Program-made: the position numbers and the translations under genes
Notes under the pieces: model-generated
Told to the model about the DNA's origin: nothing
Databases searched by the model: none
What the model saw: the letters and a program-made list of their open reading frames with translations, nothing else
Origin: a virus
Taxonomy: Duplodnaviria; Caudoviricetes
Virus record (IMG/VR): IMGVR_UViG_3300030098_003463
Span: 1-52,563 of that record
DNA length: 52,563 nucleotides
Reading direction: 5' to 3' (one strand)
Part shown: positions 2,054 through 45,099 of the stretch, in pieces
How positions within the stretch are numbered: position 1 is the stretch's first letter
Layout: every line of letters begins with the position of its first letter

Positions 2054-3634
2054 TTATGCTGCCGTGTTAGCGGTTGTATCGTCTACGGTATACCAAATTT
2101 GATAGCCAACCAAGCTTACAGTTGAAGATCCAGTTATTCTAAAACCAGCGGTTAACGCTGTCCTGTTGCATCCCCACATTTTTCTGTCATTGCCTCCACC
2201 GGGATAACGCAATGCAGTGTCGTATTGATGCCCTTCATCGTATTGTAAATCAGTTCCAAGCTCCATTAGTTTTGTTCTTGAACCACGTATGCCTTCATCT
2301 CGTATAAGTTGCAGCGTAATAGACTGCGGTCCATCCCCTACATCTCTATAAAACAAAACTACATTGTGTATAGTTTTTTCTACACCGGGAAATCCTAAAT
2401 CATTAGGGGCAGTTTCTATTTCCCATTGAATAGCAGTGCCGTCATCGTCTGTGCCTGTATTTGATTTGTACATAAAACCACTACTGTGACCACCCAATAG
2501 ATCATATTCTATTCCACTGTCAAAAAAATGACTAATATAATTTATTTTTGTTGTTTCGTGTTTGTCTATAGAAATATCCCCGTTCTCCCAATCCCATGAT
2601 AAAATTAAATCATGCCCTGTAGTATTGCCAGTCGAAGACATTAACACACGAACTTGATGTTCTTTTTCTCTAATAGAAGAAACAGAATACTGAAGACGGT
2701 CCATATTAAACGTATCTTGAAAATCTATGTTTTTAGTAACAATAGAAAATTTTCCATCTGGAGTTACTACATACGCACCTTCTCTGGCAATGCCAAAAAG
2801 AAACTCAGGTCTTGCAACCATAGATGTTTTAGATACTGGATGAAACCCTTTTAAATTTCCTACTTCTTCATCTGGAACATATTCAATAAGCCCAGAATTG
2901 TATACTAATCTGCCGGGGTAAATTCCATCTGCTTTGGCTATCCACAATTTTCCCCAATTATCTATTCCTCCAATTATAGGCGCACTATTTTCTCCACCAA
3001 TTTCATACCGATTATTTGATGGATAACGGGAAATGTCGCCTGTAAAATCTTTTGTGTTTACATCAGACCAAAGGATGCGCGTAAGTTTTTTGTTTGATGA
3101 AATTGTTGGCACCAAAACAACTAAAGCATTGCTATGTTCTACAAGCTGTTCTGCTGCAGTAAACAAAGTTGAGTCTGAAGCAAAAGTAAAAGCCGCAGCG
3201 TTTCCTGTGCCAGTATACTTAAAACAATTGTCTTTCCCGTTAGTGCCAACTATAGTGTCTTGAACAAAATCTAATGTAAAATACTCATTGTCATTTCCTG
3301 TCAAAGAAACGCTGCCTGTTATATCAGATCTAGTAGTTCCATCATCTGTATATATTTTGTCAGGAGTGCAAAACAATCTTTTTGTTCCATGTGTTGCAAA
3401 AGTGTTTTCCGTAAACCCCATTACTGGCTCAGATGATGGAATTATAGTCGTGTTGTATTTTTCGTATCCATTTCTAGACGTAGCTAAGTTCTTTTCTGAA
3501 AAGTTAATATTAGAAACAACAATACAATTTTCTGGAGAAAGCTCTGGATGCGGATAAACCAACCGATCTTTAAGTCCTCGCAATCTATAAATAGGACTTT
3601 TTTCTAAAGAAGTTTTACTAAGAGGTTGAGCCAT
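2054..3634 (-). CDS. Tail hub/nozzle (head-closure, P22 gp10 / T7 gp12-like beta-propeller) protein
   Basis: 526 aa, beta-rich, between adaptor-like gene and tail fibre. 'RILWSD' and C-terminal 'EKTIHNVVLFY' segments are typical of podovirus stabilisation proteins. Confidence 0.65.
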   Translation of the reverse strand: MAQPLSKTSLEKSPIYRLRGLKDRLVYPHPELSPENCIVVSNINFSEKNLATSRNGYEKYNTTIIPSSEPVMGFTENTFATHGTKRLFCTPDKIYTDDGTTRSDITGSVSLTGNDNEYFTLDFVQDTIVGTNGKDNCFKYTGTGNAAAFTFASDSTLFTAAEQLVEHSNALVVLVPTISSNKKLTRILWSDVNTKDFTGDISRYPSNNRYEIGGENSAPIIGGIDNWGKLWIAKADGIYPGRLVYNSGLIEYVPDEEVGNLKGFHPVSKTSMVARPEFLFGIAREGAYVVTPDGKFSIVTKNIDFQDTFNMDRLQYSVSSIREKEHQVRVLMSSTGNTTGHDLILSWDWENGDISIDKHETTKINYISHFFDSGIEYDLLGGHSSGFMYKSNTGTDDDGTAIQWEIETAPNDLGFPGVEKTIHNVVLFYRDVGDGPQSITLQLIRDEGIRGSRTKLMELGTDLQYDEGHQYDTALRYPGGGNDRKMWGCNRTALTAGFRITGSSTVSLVGYQIWYTVDDTTANTAA

Positions 3635-19181: not shown

Positions 19182-19776
19182 TCTCGCCTTCCTGTGTGCC
19201 TATCTCTACACCTTCAGAAACATCAAACTCTGCAGGAACAGCATTTTGCTCTACAATTTTTAACAAAGCTTCTGTAGACATGTCATCCAGCGTTTTCTTT
19301 TCTTCTATTGTCTGATGAATAACCGCAGCTTTAGGAGCGTGTAAACCAAGTATTTTACAACGCTGGTCAATGCACCACTGGATTTTATCCAACCACTTGG
19401 TATCGCCAGCAGGACTAAAAGAATTAGTCTTTGAGGTAAAATTAGTATTGCCTGTGTTCATCTCTGTAGTAGAAGACTTGCCTTGCTGCGAAAGATGATA
19501 GCCTTCCCATGCTACTTTTTCTAAGTGGTCTACTTTCGCTAGCTGCGTAGCCTTGGCAGCATTAAAATCAAACAATGCTTGACTCTGCCACGTTTTTTGT
19601 AACTCTGCCAACGCTTTCTGCACTGTAGTGCGACTTATAGACAATTCTTCAGTCATTTCTTTTTGCGAACGACCTTTTAAATACATATCCGCTAATCGCG
19701 CTGTATCAAACGCTTTTTCTAAATTAGTTCGTTTTCTTTTTGGGTTAGTGCTAACAGGCTTTAGTCTACGAGGCAT
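19156..19776 (-). CDS. Terminase small subunit (putative, N-terminal HTH)
   Basis: HTH 'GRSQKEMTEELSISRTTV' and 'RCKILGLHAP'; overlaps the terL start. Confidence 0.7.
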   Translation of the reverse strand: MPRRLKPVSTNPKRKRTNLEKAFDTARLADMYLKGRSQKEMTEELSISRTTVQKALAELQKTWQSQALFDFNAAKATQLAKVDHLEKVAWEGYHLSQQGKSSTTEMNTGNTNFTSKTNSFSPAGDTKWLDKIQWCIDQRCKILGLHAPKAAVIHQTIEEKKTLDDMSTEALLKIVEQNAVPAEFDVSEGVEIGTQEGEIEQYAETT

Positions 19777-19990
19777 TGTCTATAACTCTTCTTAGGTCAC
19801 TGTAAGGAAAAACGGTTTGACAGGCTTTACAGACATACTCATACGTTTGTAGCTTCCATACGACTTGCGTTTCAGGATGATCGCAATCGTTAGACAAACT
19901 ACGCATAGCCATATGAGCATCAGGCCATTCTAAATAAACCTTACCTGCTGGATAAGATCCGTAAACATATGGAACGTATTTTTCTAACAA
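19766..19990 (-). CDS. Small Zn-finger-like protein
   Basis: CDH...CKAC; start codon uncertain. Confidence 0.45.
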   Translation of the reverse strand: MLEKYVPYVYGSYPAGKVYLEWPDAHMAMRSLSNDCDHPETQVVWKLQTYEYVCKACQTVFPYSDLRRVIDNAS

Positions 19991-19995
19991 AACAT

Positions 19996-20436
19996 TTAGC
20001 GTTGCGCGTATTTGCTTTTAGGCAACAATGTTTTAAGAGCCAACACCATTTCTTGTTGTCGCTCTGGACTAAAAAAAGAATCAGTGTCTTTTAGAAAAGA
20101 ATCAAACACTTCTAAAGCAACGTCAGCGCATGGTTGCATTAACACTATTGGAGTTGATTCTCCAACATACGATCCTAAAAAATTAACATCTACATATTCT
20201 TCTGCTTTCTCTTCGCTGCTTCCATTACATAACGACTTTGTAATTTCTACAAGCTTGCCGTAGTCATAGACAGCTACAGCTTTTGCACCGCACCGTTGCC
20301 CTACCCCTACTAAAGCCGCATCGTACGCTTCTGGCTCCCATACAACAGCTTCCGCATTATAATTGGAAACATAATCTCTTATTTTTTCAACATCGGAAGT
20401 AACAGGCTTTGGTTTAACGTCTTTAACCATTCCCAT
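19996..20436 (-). CDS. Conserved hypothetical phage protein
   Basis: 'YDAALVGV...AVYDY...AEEY..NFLGSYVGESTP' is a common phage family. Confidence 0.75.
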   Translation of the reverse strand: MGMVKDVKPKPVTSDVEKIRDYVSNYNAEAVVWEPEAYDAALVGVGQRCGAKAVAVYDYGKLVEITKSLCNGSSEEKAEEYVDVNFLGSYVGESTPIVLMQPCADVALEVFDSFLKDTDSFFSPERQQEMVLALKTLLPKSKYAQR

Positions 20437-20603
20437 TATTTAGACCTTTTGCGCTTCTTCTTTTTAGCTGTCTTAGCTGATTGTCTAAAAGCCTTGGCTG
20501 TTGGTGCGCCCTTAGTGCCGGGTTTTCTCATTTTTTCTCCTGAACCACCCTTAATCCTTTTACGCTTGGCGTGAATATTTGCATACAGTCCACGTTTAGC
20601 CAT
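20436..20603 (-). CDS. Small basic conserved phage protein (55 aa)
   Basis: MAKRGLYANIHAKRKRIK.GSGEKMRKPG.KGAPT..AF..SAKTAK; GGAGG RBS. Confidence 0.8.
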   Translation of the reverse strand: MAKRGLYANIHAKRKRIKGGSGEKMRKPGTKGAPTAKAFRQSAKTAKKKKRKRSK

Positions 20604-20617
20604 TGCTATTATGCCTC

Positions 20618-20878
20618 CTACAAAATGGTAGCTATAGTAGTGCCGTCTTCCAAAGTTTCGTATAAAACTCCAAATTCCTCGTCCAAATGATCTTTGACTT
20701 TTTGCCCCATCGGAAAAACGTCTTCTGCCTTGCGTGTTGCAACTACTTTAACTTGCGGATGTTCCTGATCTAAAAATTGTGCAATGCGGTTATTGCTTGG
20801 CAAAAAAGATTCGTCATCGCCCTTAAGCTGGCGCATCAGACGTTCGTGGTCGTCTAAATTCTGATTTGGATCGGACAT
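20618..20878 (-). CDS. Hypothetical protein, first gene of late operon
   Basis: 86 aa, AAAGGA RBS. Confidence 0.65.
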   Translation of the reverse strand: MSDPNQNLDDHERLMRQLKGDDESFLPSNNRIAQFLDQEHPQVKVVATRKAEDVFPMGQKVKDHLDEEFGVLYETLEDGTTIATIL

Positions 20879-20923
20879 TGCAATCCTTTCTTAGTAGGTG
20901 TCTGTCTATAGAATATACGTATA

Positions 20924-20939
20924 TGTTCCACGTGAAACA
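20924..20939. promoter_or_regulatory. parS: parS centromere site
   Basis: TGTTCCACGTGAAACA matches the canonical TGTTNCACGTGAAACA; dyad extends to 20921-20942. Confidence 0.85.
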
Positions 20940-21059
20940 TATAATTTTTTTTGTTAGGGGCAATAGTGGGGGAATTATGGTCTACAATGTGTAGGTGTAT
21001 TATATAATTTATTACATCACAGCGGGGGGACGACGATTCCACGGCGGCATAATGCAACG

Positions 21060-21870
21060 CAAGAATCGTCTGTCAAAAATCGGCCCAAAATCACTGTCAG
21101 CAAAGCTGTTTTGGGGTTTTGGGCCGATCAGAGGCTAAACAGTGCGCGTCATAACGTGTGCTGTTCTGTTCAAGATTCTTTGAACACGTCTGATGGATGG
21201 TATCCATTTGATTTGACACCGTAGACAGTAGATTGAACGTCGGACCCTGCTGTCCTACGGCTCTGTGTTTTGGGCCGATTCCAGCCAAGATCGGTCCCGT
21301 AGGCTCTCTGTTGGCTCTCTGTCGTGGCTTGTTGGCTGTCTCCCTGAATACCATTCAGTATGTGTGATAGATGGTATCTATGGCCTTGAGGATTGATCTG
21401 AGGTCGATGGATACCATCCATTACGCCTATATGTGCCAAATGGTATTTGGAGACTTGAGGTTTGGTCTTAGGGAATAACCTCTGGTTATTAACGCGCACA
21501 AAGCAGAGCTTCATGTGTGTGGTTGTCGATTGTCGATGATTCTGGCAGTGCAAAATTTGCAGCATTTTTTCCTATGGAAAGATTGGCCTAACGTATACGC
21601 AACAACGTCGCGCTCGCGTAGGATGCACTTTTTGCAGGTCGATTTCGGTGATTTGTGGTGTTTTGCTGCAAAATTTGCACTTTTGGGGTGGCCTTGCGCG
21701 GAAGCAAAGCTTCTTATGCGCGTAATCGTAGGCCTGTGGGACGCACGTGGCTCTTTGAGCCTATTCGCGCGTTGGAGCTTTGGCTAATGCGTAGGCGCGA
21801 AACATATAGTCCGTATGCGTCGTTGGGCTAAAAATTCGGCCAAAAAATATTGTGCATTATGCGAGCGGGG
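21060..21870. repeat. Repeat-rich intergenic region at the strand switch (putative terminus/packaging/control region)
   Basis: TTTTGGGCCGAT x3, a 15-bp inverted repeat (21193/21407), TGCAAAATTTGCA x2. Confidence 0.55.
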
Positions 21871-21883
21871 ATTTTTGGAGATC

Positions 21884-22525
21884 GGGGTTGGCACGGCGAT
21901 TGCAACGGTAAAAACTGGCGGCGATCCAGCCCATCGGGTCGTTGTCATCCTCCCATAGCGAGGTGCAGGGTTGTGCATAGGCATCACGATTCGGGGCCGA
22001 CAGAGCCTCCATCGTGGAAAGCTTGCCCAATCCCAAGACATAGCCAGCCGAGCCGAAGCTAAAGACTTCAGAGCAGCCGCTCGTATGAAGCAAAGCTGGC
22101 GGGTCATCCAAGGGAATACATGATTGGATGACTGTGAATAGGACAGGCCACAGTAGGTCGAAGCAGTGACGATTGTGACCAAGGCACACCACCCCGTAGC
22201 AGTTCATTTAGACTGCCGTGATCGGTGGAGCAACAGACTCCAGTAGTTAGGATGAGGTAAACGCCATTTAGGATTTCTTGGTTAACAGTCACGAAAGCCC
22301 TGCTGTCCAAAAGTTCAACGGGCCTGACCCCTATCAAATATGCCCATAGCCGAGCGGATAACCGCTTGACAGCGCGATCAATCAAGCGTTATAACGCGCA
22401 ATTGATCAAGAGGCTGTGACAGTCCAATAGTGGCTGTCGGGTAAACCATCACCGATCTGTTAAAGCCTTGCAATTTACCATTAAGCAGATCACCTTTCAT
22501 ACACAGTGACTCATTAGAAGTCACG
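21884..22525 (+). ncRNA. Candidate large structured ncRNA (~640 nt)
   Basis: More than 12 nested/local helices, several needing G-U pairs on the + strand; no credible ORF. Confidence 0.7.
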
Positions 22526-22545
22526 CCACACCAAAGGAGCCTATC

Positions 22546-23166
22546 ATGGCTAAGTTCAGCGTTCCTCAGATCAACATCAATCGCTCTGTTGCCCCTAACA
22601 AAAGCATAAAGGGCAAAGTCAACCCGAACAACCCCATGACCAAGGGGCAGGCTCGCCTGCTCTACTTCGCGGTCAAAGAACTGACAGGAGCGCGATTGGA
22701 TCTGTTCAGCGTCAACACTCCTGCTCTGGTCCACAGCGACATCACTGAGTTGTGCGGTATCCTCAACAAAGACAGCGGCGCGACTCAGGACGAACAGCAA
22801 CTCGCCATCGAGATCTTAGTGTCGGATCTGAGGGTGCCAGTCTTAGAATCGACGCCGCGCCCTGTATCCTCTGCTGGCCGCGCCGCCGCCGCTAAAGCCG
22901 CAAGCACGGCGGCACCAGAGGCAGGTAAGGTCGGCATCGGCACAGCGACAGAGAAAACAGAGCCGAAACAGCGAAAGAAGATGACGCCAGCCGAATCACT
23001 GGCTAAAGCTCGCGCCGCTAAGAAAGCCAAAGCTGATGCGGCTAAGGCGGCTCCAGTGGCTCCTGTGGCTCCTGAGACTTCTCCTGCGCCGTCTGAAAAG
23101 ACTGCGGATGAGAAGCTGGAACTGCTGGTCAGTGGCCTGTCGGCTCTGATCAAGGCAGTGGCGTAG
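22546..23166 (+). CDS. Basic early protein with Ala/Lys/Pro-rich (histone-like) C-terminal half
   Basis: 206 aa, AAGGAG RBS; lies between the large RNA and the hammerhead. Confidence 0.8.
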   Translation: MAKFSVPQININRSVAPNKSIKGKVNPNNPMTKGQARLLYFAVKELTGARLDLFSVNTPALVHSDITELCGILNKDSGATQDEQQLAIEILVSDLRVPVLESTPRPVSSAGRAAAAKAASTAAPEAGKVGIGTATEKTEPKQRKKMTPAESLAKARAAKKAKADAAKAAPVAPVAPETSPAPSEKTADEKLELLVSGLSALIKAVA

Positions 23167-23175
23167 CACCAGTAC

Positions 23176-23212
23176 CTACCGTGTATGGTCTTATCAAGAC
23201 TATACATGGTAG
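23176..23212 (+). other. 17-bp RNA hairpin immediately 5' of the ribozyme
   Basis: CTACCGTGTATGGTCTT-atc-AAGACTATACATGGTAG with G-U pairs; no U-tract. Confidence 0.8.
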
Positions 23213-23267
23213 GGGGGTCGGGCAGATCAGCACTGTCCCTGACGAAGACCATATGGTCGAAACTCCC
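23213..23267 (+). ncRNA. Type III hammerhead ribozyme
   Basis: GUC site 23217-19; stem I GGGCAG/CUGUCC; core CUGACGA(A) 23239-46; stem II GACC-auau-GGUC; GAAA 23259-62; stem III GGGGGU/ACUCCC. Confidence 0.88.
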
Positions 23268-23273
23268 GTCAGC

Positions 23274-23410
23274 TTGCTCCATAACCATGCCGTATAGACC
23301 ACCAAATCTATTCTTGGGGAGCAATGAATACACCACTGGTTCAGCAGTCTGACAGAGTCCCTTAAGGGATCTACGGTTCTTGTCCCATCAGACTGCTTGA
23401 CCAGTATTCA
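23274..23410 (+). ncRNA. Structured RNA element downstream of the hammerhead
   Basis: TTGCTCC/GGAGCAA; ACTGGTTCAGCAGTCTGA/TCAGACTGCTTGACCAGT; inner TCCCTTAAGGGA. Confidence 0.6.
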
Positions 23411-23432
23411 CACCACAGAAGAGGTATCCTCT

Positions 23433-23621
23433 ATGTACTACGCAATGGTAGTGCGAATTAATGCCGCTTACAGAGGGCAGGTGTGGGTTTATGTAGACTT
23501 ACACACCCACCGAATCGCCTTACCCTATGTCTTTAAGACACGGGATAAGGCAGTTGACACAATGGGATCGCCTGTTGTGTCATATGACCCCGACAATTAC
23601 TCTCACAAACTATCTCAATAG
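23433..23621 (+). CDS. Hypothetical early protein
   Basis: ATG after GAGG RBS. Confidence 0.5.
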   Translation: MYYAMVVRINAAYRGQVWVYVDLHTHRIALPYVFKTRDKAVDTMGSPVVSYDPDNYSHKLSQ

Positions 23622-29754: not shown

Positions 29755-30573
29755 ATGGCAAAGCAACCTGAAGGTGTAAGCAAGAGCGACATGTTTTACG
29801 TAGACAACCCCGATATGATTCAAATTGTAGAGGGGTTCAATCACCGCGAAGACTTTTCAGACTTAAACAATCTGGTGGAGTCTATTATCCAGCGTGGCAT
29901 AGATACGCCACTACATGTCCGTAGGAACCGTGGCAACAAAGAACAGCCGTTTGCACTGGTAGCAGGAGAACGTAGGCTTAGAGCGGCTAAGATGGCCCAT
30001 GAAAATGGTGCTGGTCATATCCGCATTCCCGTCATCGTCAAGCAAGTAGATGACAAGCAAGCGTTTGAGGATAGCGTAGTAGAGAATATCGAACGCAAAA
30101 ACCTGAACCATGTCGAAGAGTCTAATGCTGTAGTTCGCATGGGACAGTTTGGATACAGCGTCAAAGAAATTGCCAACAAGTTCAGTCGCTCTGATCAGTG
30201 GGTAAGAGAGCGTCAAGTATTAGCAGAGGCGCACAGCGAAGTAAAGAAAGCTGTGATCAAGCGCAAGATTCCTACCGATGTAGCAGTAGGATTGGTCAAA
30301 GCCACAGACCTACCAAAGCAAGTAGGTGAGCTAAAAAAGATCCTTGTAAAAACTCAGGGATCAAAGAAAAATACTCGCAAAGCAGCAGCAACAATTATAG
30401 GAAAGAAGGTGCGTCCTGCAATAAAAGATTTAGAAAAAGTTAGGACAGCAGTGACTACTGCAGAGGGAATGGACGAAGCAAACCGAGAAATATTCTTAGC
30501 TGTATTAGAGTATACTTTAGGAGAGTTACCTGAAGAAGACCTTGGTCATTTCATTGATGTCCTCTGTGAGTAA
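29755..30573 (+). CDS. ParB/Spo0J-family protein
   Basis: 'LVESIIQRGI.TPL.V', 'LVAGERRLRA', 'ENIERKNL', then an HTH. Confidence 0.88.
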   Translation: MAKQPEGVSKSDMFYVDNPDMIQIVEGFNHREDFSDLNNLVESIIQRGIDTPLHVRRNRGNKEQPFALVAGERRLRAAKMAHENGAGHIRIPVIVKQVDDKQAFEDSVVENIERKNLNHVEESNAVVRMGQFGYSVKEIANKFSRSDQWVRERQVLAEAHSEVKKAVIKRKIPTDVAVGLVKATDLPKQVGELKKILVKTQGSKKNTRKAAATIIGKKVRPAIKDLEKVRTAVTTAEGMDEANREIFLAVLEYTLGELPEEDLGHFIDVLCE

Positions 30574-32189: not shown

Positions 32190-32972
32190 ATGCCACTGAC
32201 CAAAGAAGAAGAAGCTTTGAGTGCAGAATATTTTAAGGATGCAGCAGAGCTATTAGAAAAAACGTATCGCCGTTTTTATTCTGGTAAAAGAGAAACTTTA
32301 TTTGCAGAGGATCTGGATGTGTTGTGGAACAACGTCCAGCCTATGAATGGATACGAGTTTTTGTTGTCTTGCAAAAAGCATATTAGCGACTTTACTGGCG
32401 ATGACCGCAATGCTGGCGATTGGTTTCCTACGCCAGCTAACCTAAAGAAACATGCTGTGTCGGTTGAAGCAGAGCGCGTTGCTGAACATCAAAGGATGAG
32501 AGCAGAAGAAGCAGAAGCAAGAGGGCAAAAGGTTTCTCTTGGCAAAAACTTTACCACAGTTGCAATTGAAGACCCATACTTACAGGCTATGATGGGCAAA
32601 AAATTTGTTGAATGTTTGAGCGGAGACTCAGCACGTTGTCAGTTTTGTTATGACTCAGGGTATGTAAGGTTCTACTACTACCCTGAGAAAAAAACACACA
32701 TTTTTTTAGGAAAGGAGTGGTTAGATTTATGGGATAGAAACAAAAAACAAGCAGAAGAGTTTCGTATGGCATTAGCAATCTGCGATGAATGCGAAGCCGC
32801 AAAGGACGTTCTTTACAAAGAGAACGAAAAGGAAGAAAGGTTTAGGTTGCCTATGCTTTTTCACATTAGAAAGCTGGTAGCTCGTAGAAAAAATAAGCAC
32901 AAAGAAATATTACGCCGCAAAGATCTTGCGGCAGGAGATCGAACTCAATTGATTGGAGCAAGTTATGACTAA
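32190..32972 (+). CDS. Helicase loader/inhibitor-like replication protein with Zn-finger
   Basis: 'CKKHI...WFPTPANLKK' (G39P/lambda-P-like pattern), CxxC.xG and CxxC. Confidence 0.5.
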   Translation: MPLTKEEEALSAEYFKDAAELLEKTYRRFYSGKRETLFAEDLDVLWNNVQPMNGYEFLLSCKKHISDFTGDDRNAGDWFPTPANLKKHAVSVEAERVAEHQRMRAEEAEARGQKVSLGKNFTTVAIEDPYLQAMMGKKFVECLSGDSARCQFCYDSGYVRFYYYPEKKTHIFLGKEWLDLWDRNKKQAEEFRMALAICDECEAAKDVLYKENEKEERFRLPMLFHIRKLVARRKNKHKEILRRKDLAAGDRTQLIGASYD

Positions 32973-33873
32973 GCAAATAGCAATGGGAAAATTGCCACAT
33001 GACGTAGAGATATTTGAAGTTACTCCGACTGTAGCAAAAGAGTATTTGGACGGCACGTTTGACAGAAATCGTCCAATTGTAGAAAATGCAGTTGCTCACT
33101 ATACAGAACAAATGAGGCAAGGAAACTTTTTAGTTGCAACTCCTTTGATAGTAGCGATAGTAGAAACAACTAATCGCTGTGTGTTAGTAGATGGACAACA
33201 CAGATTGTCTGCAGTTATTCGTTGGAAAAACAAACTAACTTTTACTCTTCTTACATACTATCTAAAGGACGAAGATCAGTTGGCTGATCTATATGCTTGC
33301 ATAGACGTAGGTAGGAGTAGAAATCTTACTGACAATGTAAGAGCGCAAGGCTTTGAGCAAGAGTCTGGTTTAAGCAAAGTTGAGGCTACTCGTTTCGTTT
33401 CTTCTATTTTGTGGGCAGAAAGAAAAGACACTGCCTTTATGCACAAAACATCAATGGCTGGTAGCTATGCAGATCAAATCGAGAATGCCCGTGGTTGGCT
33501 AACCGAAGGCACTGAGTATTTTAGATGTGCAAGAGAAGCTACGGGATTGATGAAAAAATTAGGCCGCAGAAAACCTATAGTTGCTTGTGGTTTAATTACG
33601 TTTAGAGGACAACCCAATAGAGCTACTCAGTTTTGGCGTGGTGTATTTTCTATGGACAACATTGCAGCTAATGATCCAAGAGGTAAATTGCACCACAAGA
33701 TTATTGAAACATCACAAGACAGAACAGCACATGGCAGTGTCGGCGCAGTTTTATTAGCCAGAATTATATGCACGTGCTGGAATGCTTACATCACTAATCG
33801 CCAGTTGACCGTAATTAAACCTATCAAAAGACTTGCATTTCAACGCTGTAATTGGAGAGAGGAAATAAAATGA
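32965..33873 (+). CDS. ParB/Srx-fold (DGQHR) protein
   Basis: 'VTP..AKEYL...NRPI...LVDGQHRLSAVI...IDVGRSR'. Confidence 0.75.
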   Translation: MTKQIAMGKLPHDVEIFEVTPTVAKEYLDGTFDRNRPIVENAVAHYTEQMRQGNFLVATPLIVAIVETTNRCVLVDGQHRLSAVIRWKNKLTFTLLTYYLKDEDQLADLYACIDVGRSRNLTDNVRAQGFEQESGLSKVEATRFVSSILWAERKDTAFMHKTSMAGSYADQIENARGWLTEGTEYFRCAREATGLMKKLGRRKPIVACGLITFRGQPNRATQFWRGVFSMDNIAANDPRGKLHHKIIETSQDRTAHGSVGAVLLARIICTCWNAYITNRQLTVIKPIKRLAFQRCNWREEIK

Positions 33874-44100: not shown

Positions 44101-45099
44101 TTAACCTTCTGAATTTACACGTTCAGATAATTCTTCCATGTTTGTATCTACGTAATGCGACCTTTTAAATGTTCCCGATTCAAAGTCTTGATCAAAATAT
44201 AATACACCTTCGTCATCTACAATCATAGAATCTGGAAAATATTCATTTGTTAAGTCTAGTGCTATCATATCGTCTACTGAAAAATCTAACATCAAACCCA
44301 CTGCTAGTCGATCTAATCGACTTTTGTTTTTATCGTTTAGTTCTTCATAGGGCTTGCTTATAAGTGTGTTAAAATGGTCTAATTCATTCCAACGCCCTAA
44401 AGCATAAATTTCTTCAGCTTGTTGATCTAAACTTGAAAATTCTGGACTTAAAATTCCTTGTTGATAATCCTCGTCATATTCTGCAAAGTTTGTCATTAAT
44501 TCTTGAACAGCTTTACCAGCACCTGATGATTCTCCACTTGGAACATCCGTTGCTTCTATCAACGGTTCTGTAGGAATCATTCTTCTTCCTGTTCTTTGTA
44601 TAAATTCATCAAGAGGTTCTTTGTAAACGCCAAGTGTATCAGTGGCTTTAGCCCCTGCTGCATACCATATAGCCGCGCCTTGTTCAAAATTAAAATATAG
44701 ACCGGGAGCAGATCCTAAGTTTAATGGATCTCCATCTTTGTCTACTGGATTAGGAGGGTAGAAATTAAGCCCATACTGTCTTGGAACCGTTATTCCTTTG
44801 CTTTTCCATTGATCGGCTCTATCTCCACTAAAAAACTCCCATGTTTTGTAGGCAGCAACTGCAGTGCCAACAGCAACTGCAACTGGTCCAACATAAGGAG
44901 CTATCTTTGTTCCAAGGGCCGAAAGAGTTTCATTGCCTTCTAAAACATTTTGCACATAACTTTTGTTGTCATCCCACTGATACATTGAGTCTACGCCAAA
45001 CAGTTTTCCTTTCCATTCTAAATCTGGAATGTCACCCGGCAATGGTATCTCATCCAATGGTATCTCATCCGTTACGTCGCTAAAAAAAAAAATCCCCAA
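44101..45099 (-). CDS. Protein with TM-like segment; probable +1-frame extension of the upstream ORF
   Basis: TTG start without RBS just before a T11 run; overlaps the upstream stop. Confidence 0.6.
   Translation of the reverse strand: MGIFFFSDVTDEIPLDEIPLPGDIPDLEWKGKLFGVDSMYQWDDNKSYVQNVLEGNETLSALGTKIAPYVGPVAVAVGTAVAAYKTWEFFSGDRADQWKSKGITVPRQYGLNFYPPNPVDKDGDPLNLGSAPGLYFNFEQGAAIWYAAGAKATDTLGVYKEPLDEFIQRTGRRMIPTEPLIEATDVPSGESSGAGKAVQELMTNFAEYDEDYQQGILSPEFSSLDQQAEEIYALGRWNELDHFNTLISKPYEELNDKNKSRLDRLAVGLMLDFSVDDMIALDLTNEYFPDSMIVDDEGVLYFDQDFESGTFKRSHYVDTNMEELSERVNSEG

Follow-up and report, generated by a model that had tools for sequence, protein, structure and literature searches.

A conserved structured RNA in front of the rightward operon of a marine phage

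The genes of the marine phage analysed here, an IMG/VR virus record of 52,563 bases (completeness estimate 99%) that is referred to in full as the window, run away from each other on either side of a long interval, and the question is what that interval encodes. Leftward genes, comprising small ORFs, the small and large terminase and the capsid, lie to the left of 20,880, and rightward genes, comprising small ORFs, two ParB-like genes, a DUF932-like gene and a Holliday-junction resolvase, run from the ATG at 22546 to about 36,157, leaving 20,880-22,545 as the phage's one divergent control region. The operon from 22546 is the only rightward operon of the genome. The right-hand third of the control region, 21884-22525, had been put forward in a preliminary description as a non-coding plus-strand sequence with structure at the level of RNA, and this reading was borne out by covariation, G-U bias and stop codons in all frames, as set out below. 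The nearest isolates infect very different bacteria and are 36-48% identical in the large terminase and 25-33% identical in the capsid; cyanophages are among the nearest large-terminase relatives. A blastn search of the region against the phage collection gave zero matches.

Homologues and the covarying fold

Searching with the small terminase gave 15 loci. In a blastn comparison of 20400-22600 with loci L002-L017, the RNA region was complete in L002/L004 (one contig), L007 and L009 and partial in L006. A metagenome scan with a conserved block added five loci, two of them new lineages (L023 and L025); L022 and L024 were treated as duplicates because their profile scores equal those of L002 and L007, and L021 is nearly identical to L009. 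Six sequences were aligned, namely the window, L002, L007, L009, L025 and L023 (cut at its 5' end), with duplicates and the partial loci L005 and L006 omitted; L005 and L006 served only in comparing the 5' part and the region upstream. Three RNA-pattern scans of viral contigs returned the same three to four contigs only and a profile of gp1, the first gene of the operon, the same three, while one pattern run against genome contigs gave no match.

More distant relatives share the arrangement. L016 (2948-4428) and L017 (3476-4979) have the same layout, with a gene-poor gap of about 1.5 kb between the terminase genes (small terminase 44-46% identical) and a distant gp1 homologue at the head of the same operon (35% identity over 68 aa, E 2e-8, in L017). 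No RNA similarity was detectable in the gaps of these two loci, an nhmmer profile of the RNA gave no match in L010-L017, and the equivalent gap of L016 folded with z = -2.17. The upstream regions of four distant lineages were almost devoid of alignable DNA, with short matches only. The RNA family has so far been seen in one small marine-phage cluster.

RNAalifold, applied to the six homologues over 21915-22545, gave 163 pairs in 27 helices. Standard pairs were found in 95.5% of cells, compared with 31-43% after sliding the 3' partners by 1-3 columns, and 37 of the 163 pairs had changed on both sides, compared with 16.8±2.8 in column shuffles (0/500 reached 37) and 2-7 in the slid controls; with four sequences alone, 32/163 pairs were already changed on both sides. 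A copy in the X9/X10 contigs is about 95% identical to the window and differs from it by 30 substitutions and one 23-nt deletion. The substitutions were placed by eye onto the predicted helices: 12 make up six compensatory pairs (table 1), eight retain pairing via G-U or regain Watson-Crick pairing (21945, 21989, 22017, 22053, 22100, 22154, 22323 and 22419), eight are unpaired in loops or joints and two are mismatches (22396 and 22482). The deletion takes out exactly one hairpin, 22227-22249. Among the relatives, too, entire hairpins are present or absent (blocks of 47, 22, 34, 70 and 23 nt), and such gain and loss is variation typical of RNA, not protein. The fold is real and has been kept by selection. 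It consists of nine helical domains. A multi-way junction with an invariant core lies at its centre and a pseudoknot at its 3' end, and modular hairpins are gained or lost from relative to relative (table 1); 21915-22545 very probably forms a conserved structured RNA of the plus strand.

The strand follows from the imbalance of one-sided changes. Across the plus-strand structure 100 cells are G-U and nine are A-C, in line with the G-U compatibility on that strand that had been pointed out earlier, and the one-sided changes of the X9/X10 variant favour the plus strand by eight to two.

Two outcomes had been named beforehand as speaking against an RNA, namely a folding energy no better than that of shuffled sequence and a conserved coding signature. 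Folded at full length, 21884-22525 (+) reached -222.7 kcal/mol, far below its shuffles (z = -7.55, 20 dinucleotide shuffles); the minus strand of this interval gave z = -3.02, and for 21915-22545 z was -4.78 (20 shuffles each). When the whole record was scanned in 200-nt windows, which sever long-range helices (700 windows, base-composition regression), plus-strand windows starting at 21901-22351 scored from +0.33 to -2.47. As the local windows are not stability outliers, the case rests on covariation, and thermodynamics alone is not decisive. Other stable 200-nt windows were 23101-23300 (+; z -3.1), just 3' of gp1, and 23401-23600 (both strands; z about -3.0), among small ORFs.

A coding signature was looked for and not found. 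No open frame is conserved: all six sequences have four or more stops in every one of their six frames, and the length of 27 of the 31 indel blocks is not divisible by three. Minus-strand ORFs at 21784-22182, 21857-22207 and 22104-22385 (93-132 aa) gave fragmentary BLASTP matches among homologues; their length and frame are not kept (116 aa compared with 80, 89, 69/114 and 42 in homologues), unlike those of the true small genes at 19766-19990 and 20618-20878. ORFs of the RNA region matched no Pfam or PHROG family.

Table 1. Features of the control region and the rightward operon (positions in the window).
Feature	Position	Strand	Basis
24-bp palindrome TATATGTTCCAC/GTGAAACATATA, candidate operator	20920-20943		kept in 6/6 aligned relatives covering it
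Sigma-70-like promoter, rightward, TCTACA-16-TATAAT	20981-21008	+	consensus scan; region conserved in alignment
Sigma-70-like promoter, leftward, TTGACA-16-CATTAT	21076-21049	-	consensus scan; region conserved in alignment
Upstream conserved stretch, weaker signs of RNA structure	21490-21885	+	covariation
Three palindromes TGCA-N5-TGCA, candidate enhancer/operator sites	21549-61, 21624-36, 21667-79		7/7 aligned sequences
Sigma-54-type -24/-12 element TGGCACG-N4-TTGCA, TGGCACGGCGATTGCA	21889-21904	+	pattern match, conservation
Core structured RNA, entire 5' leader of rightward operon	21915-22545	+	RNAalifold, X9/X10 variant, no conserved frame
P1, 5'-terminal G-U-rich hairpin	21916-21947	+	MFE; both-sided change in 4/8 pairs; 21945 U>C turns G-U into G-C
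Small hairpin	about 21949-66	+	predicted fold
P3, long irregular hairpin domain	21968-22034	+	25 pairs, 9 both-sided; compensatory 21972/22029, 21975/22026, 21995/22007
P4, three-way junction domain	22043-22100	+	helices 7-10; compensatory 22056/22068, 22057/22067
P5 hairpin with conserved 12-nt loop GGGAAnACAUGA	22103-22132	+	alignment, MFE; compensatory 22110/22125
P6, central multi-branched domain	22142-22328	+	four nested covarying helices round invariant 44-nt core 22185-22228; optional hairpins added or lost whole in homologues (indels of 47, 22, 70, 23 nt)
P7, three adjacent hairpins of 3' domain	22351-22438	+	helices 21-26; middle hairpin absent from L025
H-type pseudoknot, 22440-45/22474-79 crossing 22454-61/22484-91	22440-22491	+	covariation
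Expression platform (candidate), hairpin 22506-24 within SD helix	22493-22539	+	alignment, MFE
gp1, first gene of rightward operon, 206 aa	22546-23166	+	homologue search
Two ParB-like genes	29755-30573, 32953-33873	+	ORF scan

Nine sets of helices had been read by eye in the preliminary description, and eight are kept in homologues. The G-U-rich stem 21916-27/21936-47 is P1, with the double changes given in table 1; GCCAGC 22043/GCTGGC 22095 reappears as predicted helix 7, and GTCATCCAA 22103/TTGGATGAC 22124 carries the compensatory pair of P5 in X9/X10. Both-sided changes were found in 2, 6, 4 and 2 pairs of the four nested helices of 22138-22334 and in four pairs of GATCTG 22454/CAGATC 22486, and GTGACT 22506/AGTCAC 22519 is replaced by GGTCC/GGACC and GGTGCT/AGCACC in homologues (read by eye). 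AGCGG/CCGCT at 22353 is kept with zero double changes; GATCAAT 22376/ATTGATC 22401, the hairpin of which is absent from L025, is invariant and therefore uninformative for covariation. The remaining set, GGGGTTGGCA 21884/TGCCCAATCCC 22024, is not conserved and was rejected, because 22024-22034 pairs with 21968-21977 instead (compensatory 21972/22029 and 21975/22026). The proposed extent of about 640 nt holds from 21915 onward; 21884-21914 fits a promoter-like element better than an RNA helix, and at the other end structure continues to 22546.

At the 3' end of the RNA, the pseudoknot comprises 12 pairs, of which 95.4% of cells are paired, with three both-sided changes (0-1 in slid controls). 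An optional closing helix of P7, 22341-45/22439-43, competes with the pseudoknot helix; as 22440-22443 is claimed by two supported pairings, either one is wrong or both alternate, and the 3' topology given here is provisional. Further on, an anti-SD sequence, CCUUU (22493-97), pairs with AAAGG (22533-37) of the Shine-Dalgarno (SD) sequence AAAGGAG. All 25 cells of this SD helix in five sequences are Watson-Crick, and in L009 it reads CUCCU/AGGAG, with both strands changed; the helix is only 5 bp long and spans a large internal loop, and its covariation comes from one lineage in a shifted register. No terminator-like site was found on the plus strand in 21915-22545 or before the gp1 ATG. A long-range helix predicted with four sequences, GATTGCAA 21898/TTGCAATT 22469, was rejected because L002, L023, L025 and the X9/X10 variant carry changes in it that are not compensated.

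The RNA stands directly before the gp1 start, on the sense strand, in the window, L002, L007, L009, L025 and L023, and the conserved structure extends right up to the SD of gp1. Since structure reaches the start codon, the RNA forms part of an mRNA as its leader and need not be a gene in its own right. For gp1 itself 36 homologues were collected, all at least 61% identical, a number which shows that there are further copies beyond those aligned here; the protein matched no Pfam or PHROG family, its AlphaFold2 model was unusable (mean pLDDT 49.3) and the ESM Atlas held no usable match.

Start of the transcript and the control region

The sigma-54-type element carries GG at -24 and, at the set distance from it, TGC at -12, and the transcript is predicted to start near 21915, about 12 nt past the element, where P1 begins. 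The pattern TGGCACG-N4-TTGCW has one match in the window and none in 100 shuffles. The element is invariant save for its spacer in every covering homologue (6/6), and a single match each was found in the complete 55.6-kb G001, in G002 and in G003, always in the homologous place. A second exact match to TGGCAC-N5-TTGCW, at 44854-44869 (-) inside ORF 44101-45099, is probably due to chance, as G001 has no second exact match.

Three of the six TGCA-N5-TGCA palindromes of the window (1.88±1.40 expected in the whole window) lie upstream of the element at a distance of 224-342 bp. The Salmonella sigma-54 promoters listed in PMC3844500 have the same form, GG at -24 and TGC at -12, and sigma-54 enhancers are there placed usually about 70-150 bp upstream, with other arrangements noted. 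No activator gene of the phage's own (PF00158) was found in the phage. To our knowledge, the hosts of cyanophages are without sigma-54. Judged from sequence, the balance tips slightly towards a working promoter.

Weaker signs of structure continue upstream. In 21490-21885, 93 pairs were predicted, 92.2% paired (29-49% when slid), of which 18 had changed on both sides compared with 11.3±2.1 in shuffles (1/500 shuffles); the predicted helices shift with the alignment used. Owing to this plus-strand covariation in the 400 nt upstream, the transcript may begin further up and exceed 640 nt, and the rightward sigma-70-like site could be an alternative start, with a predicted leader of about 1.5 kb. 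A helix of the promoter-like element with 21811-21830 was also considered and rejected (82.5% paired, with one double change; shuffles gave 79.2% and sliding by 3 gave 62-64%); its register varies with the alignment.

The left part of the control region holds further candidate signals. The palindrome at 20920-20943 is a candidate operator of the control region, and the two sigma-70-like sites may be face-to-face promoters of the phage switch. The top outlier of the 200-nt scan, 21001-21200 (+; -3.7), is not within the RNA; it holds an invariant 10-bp hairpin, ACGACGATTC ... GAATCGTCTGT, which overlaps the leftward TTGACA-16-CATTAT and lies just past the rightward TATAAT-like site. TTTTGGGCCGAT is present three times, at 21079 (inverted), 21117 and 21268. 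Small dyads with a GGT (or ACC) centre were seen at 21193-21207, 21367-21381, 21407-21421 and 21438-21452. Their arms vary among copies and relatives yet remain complementary (CCAAAT/ATTTGG and CTGAAT/ATTCAG); they resemble hairpins more than protein sites and would hint at a transcript start far upstream on the plus strand.

Comparison with known RNAs

At gathering scores, Rfam 15 gave no match in the whole window. With E up to 10, 21300-22800 gave chance-level matches only, to mir-1179 (19.1 bits, cut-off 80) and, on the minus strand, P37 (16.1 bits, cut-off 50); five homologous loci gave two sub-threshold matches, both outside the RNA. In view of the zero Rfam matches, the models' own test excludes GOLLD, ROOL, OLE, HEARO, tmRNA, RNase P and introns, which agrees with the absence of tmRNA, RNase P and intron hallmarks remarked on earlier. 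No tRNA or tmRNA gene was found by ARAGORN in the whole 52.6-kb record. In L007 a hammerhead type III match was seen at 2266-2323 (-), inside the gp1 homologue downstream (23.9 bits, cut-off 48.5, E 0.58); it is probably due to chance.

GOLLD and ROOL often neighbour tRNA genes, and OLE and HEARO (IscB omega) RNAs are found with OLE-associated and IscB-like genes, respectively. To GOLLD and ROOL the phage RNA is similar in its several hundred nucleotides and many junctions, in being phage-borne, in its conserved core with variable peripheral hairpins and in having no known protein partner; it differs in giving no covariance-model match at E up to 10, in having no neighbouring tRNA genes, in being an mRNA leader that ends at an SD and in its occurrence in one small marine-phage cluster. 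OLE and HEARO are similar in their large size and complex fold, but no Rfam match to them was found, and the adjacent ORFs that were scanned included neither an OLE-associated nor an IscB-like gene. In the lambda N leader and the T4 gene 32 pseudoknot, a structured 5' leader controls translation of the first phage gene. Like these, the phage RNA leads an early gene, has a pseudoknot a short distance 5' of the SD and contains an SD with a predicted pairing partner, but it is several times larger, has a multi-way-junction core and is without sequence or model similarity to them.

GOLLD and ROOL are described in PMC12286853 as phage-linked RNAs that form homo-oligomers. A candidate self-complementary loop of the phage RNA, UUGCAA (22469-74), is not conserved, being UUGGAA in L002/L023 and CUGUAA in the X9/X10 variant. 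Sigma-54-dependent promoters that drive non-coding RNAs are described for glmY, glmZ and the rsr-Y RNA operon of Salmonella (PMC3844500); the points of likeness are TGGCACG-N4-TTGCA, suitably spaced from the nucleotide at which structure begins, and the palindromes upstream, whereas here the genome is that of a phage without its own activator gene, the palindromes are 224-342 bp off and the start is a predicted one. Candidate csRNAs were reported from the same collection, IMG/VR, by Fremin, Bhatt and Kyrpides (2023; PMC10690425), likewise on the strength of covariation in intergenic regions of phages. Going by the reported candidate size of 29-151 nt, the whole RNA cannot be among them, although single hairpins could be. 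No published description of the RNA was found in the literature; fragments could sit in the supplementary tables of PMC10690425. It is likely that a new RNA family is at hand.

Function of the leader

The first reading is that of a cis-acting leader, because the fold runs without a break into the SD of gp1 in every relative, has a pseudoknot and the SD helix at its 3' end and is followed by no terminator before the ATG. We give this main role a probability of about 0.5. The RNA would act in cis as the complete 5' leader of the early (rightward) operon, its transcription starting near 21915 from the sigma-54-type promoter served by the three upstream palindromes; expression of the early genes would thereby be linked to an enhancer-binding protein of the host. 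The last helix would in one conformation pair 22493-97 with the SD (22533-37). Whether this SD helix forms would be decided by the large fold upstream, to which a factor of the phage or the host may be bound (gp1 is a candidate, as a guess), and the helix would gate translation of gp1 and thereby the expression or stability of the early transcript.

A trans-acting ornate RNA would account about equally well for the size of the fold and its invariant junctions. Such a stable RNA, of the GOLLD/ROOL kind, would be a 5' piece of the early transcript, cut out or left stable, and would serve as a scaffold, an oligomeric RNA particle or a decoy for a host factor or defence, with the SD pairing incidental. 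The size of the phage RNA, its many junctions and the invariance of the loops and joining strands that separate covarying stems are typical of tertiary-structure RNAs and not of expression platforms; optional hairpins come and go round a fixed core; the RNA takes up about 1.2% of the phage genome; and a 600-nt fold far exceeds any known sensor of a single SD, which favours a trans-acting or architectural role. The phage link of GOLLD and ROOL (PMC12286853) points the same way. Against this, no terminator or recognisable processing site lies between the RNA and gp1, structure is conserved up to the SD, no tRNA genes are nearby and the self-association loop UUGCAA is altered in L002/L023 and the X9/X10 variant, so that we hold the trans-acting role to be the less probable of the two, and rather unlikely. 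Less likely again is a bolder version, in which the gene-free stretch right of the divergent promoters, about 21015-22545 (some 1.5 kb), would form a single giant structured RNA whose best-conserved core is 21915-22545. This would be a new class of ornate phage RNA, an RNA machine, regulator or particle setting the early/late or carrier-state decision instead of a protein repressor.

An RNA-based switch of the early operon, as in phage-plasmids or satellites, would act by causing or preventing premature termination, either through a processed piece of the leader that pairs with that leader or through a leader that modifies RNA polymerase. P4 CI RNA, P1 c4 RNA and HK022 put are examples. The position of the RNA, as the leader of the only rightward operon at a single divergent control region, would suit such a switch, and no integrase or repressor-like protein was recognised among the scanned ORFs; together with the two ParB-like genes this may indicate a plasmid-like carrier state. 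The known examples are, however, 70-180 nt long compared with 630 here, no internal terminators were found on the plus strand in 21915-22545 and no conspicuous repeated, complementary segments were seen in the leader, and we regard a switch of this kind as quite improbable.

The dyads might instead act in DNA, as part of a replication origin, packaging site or enhancer region, with a transcript devoid of function. The control region does adjoin the terminase genes and is rich in repeats and palindromes upstream; protein-binding dyads, however, would conserve sequence, whereas here pairing and not sequence is preserved over 27 helices, some about 180 nt apart, and one-sided changes are mostly plus-strand G-U (100 compared with 9, and 8 compared with 2 in the variant), which makes a DNA-level element very improbable. 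Protein coding on either strand, for which the minus-strand ORFs with their fragmentary BLASTP matches would speak, can practically be set aside in view of the varying ORF lengths and frames, the stops in every frame, the frame-breaking indel blocks and the lack of Pfam or PHROG matches.

We know of only a handful of bacterial or phage RNAs of more than 500 nt with complex conserved folds, all of them structurally surprising and most functionally unexplained. The reach of the present RNA is limited for now to one small phage cluster. It combines unusually clean covariation from few sequences with a defined place, as leader of the sole rightward operon, and with its candidate expression platform it offers a tractable case in which the role of a very large RNA fold before a gene can be studied. 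If the sigma-54 promoter is true, the phage would begin its early programme in an unusual manner.
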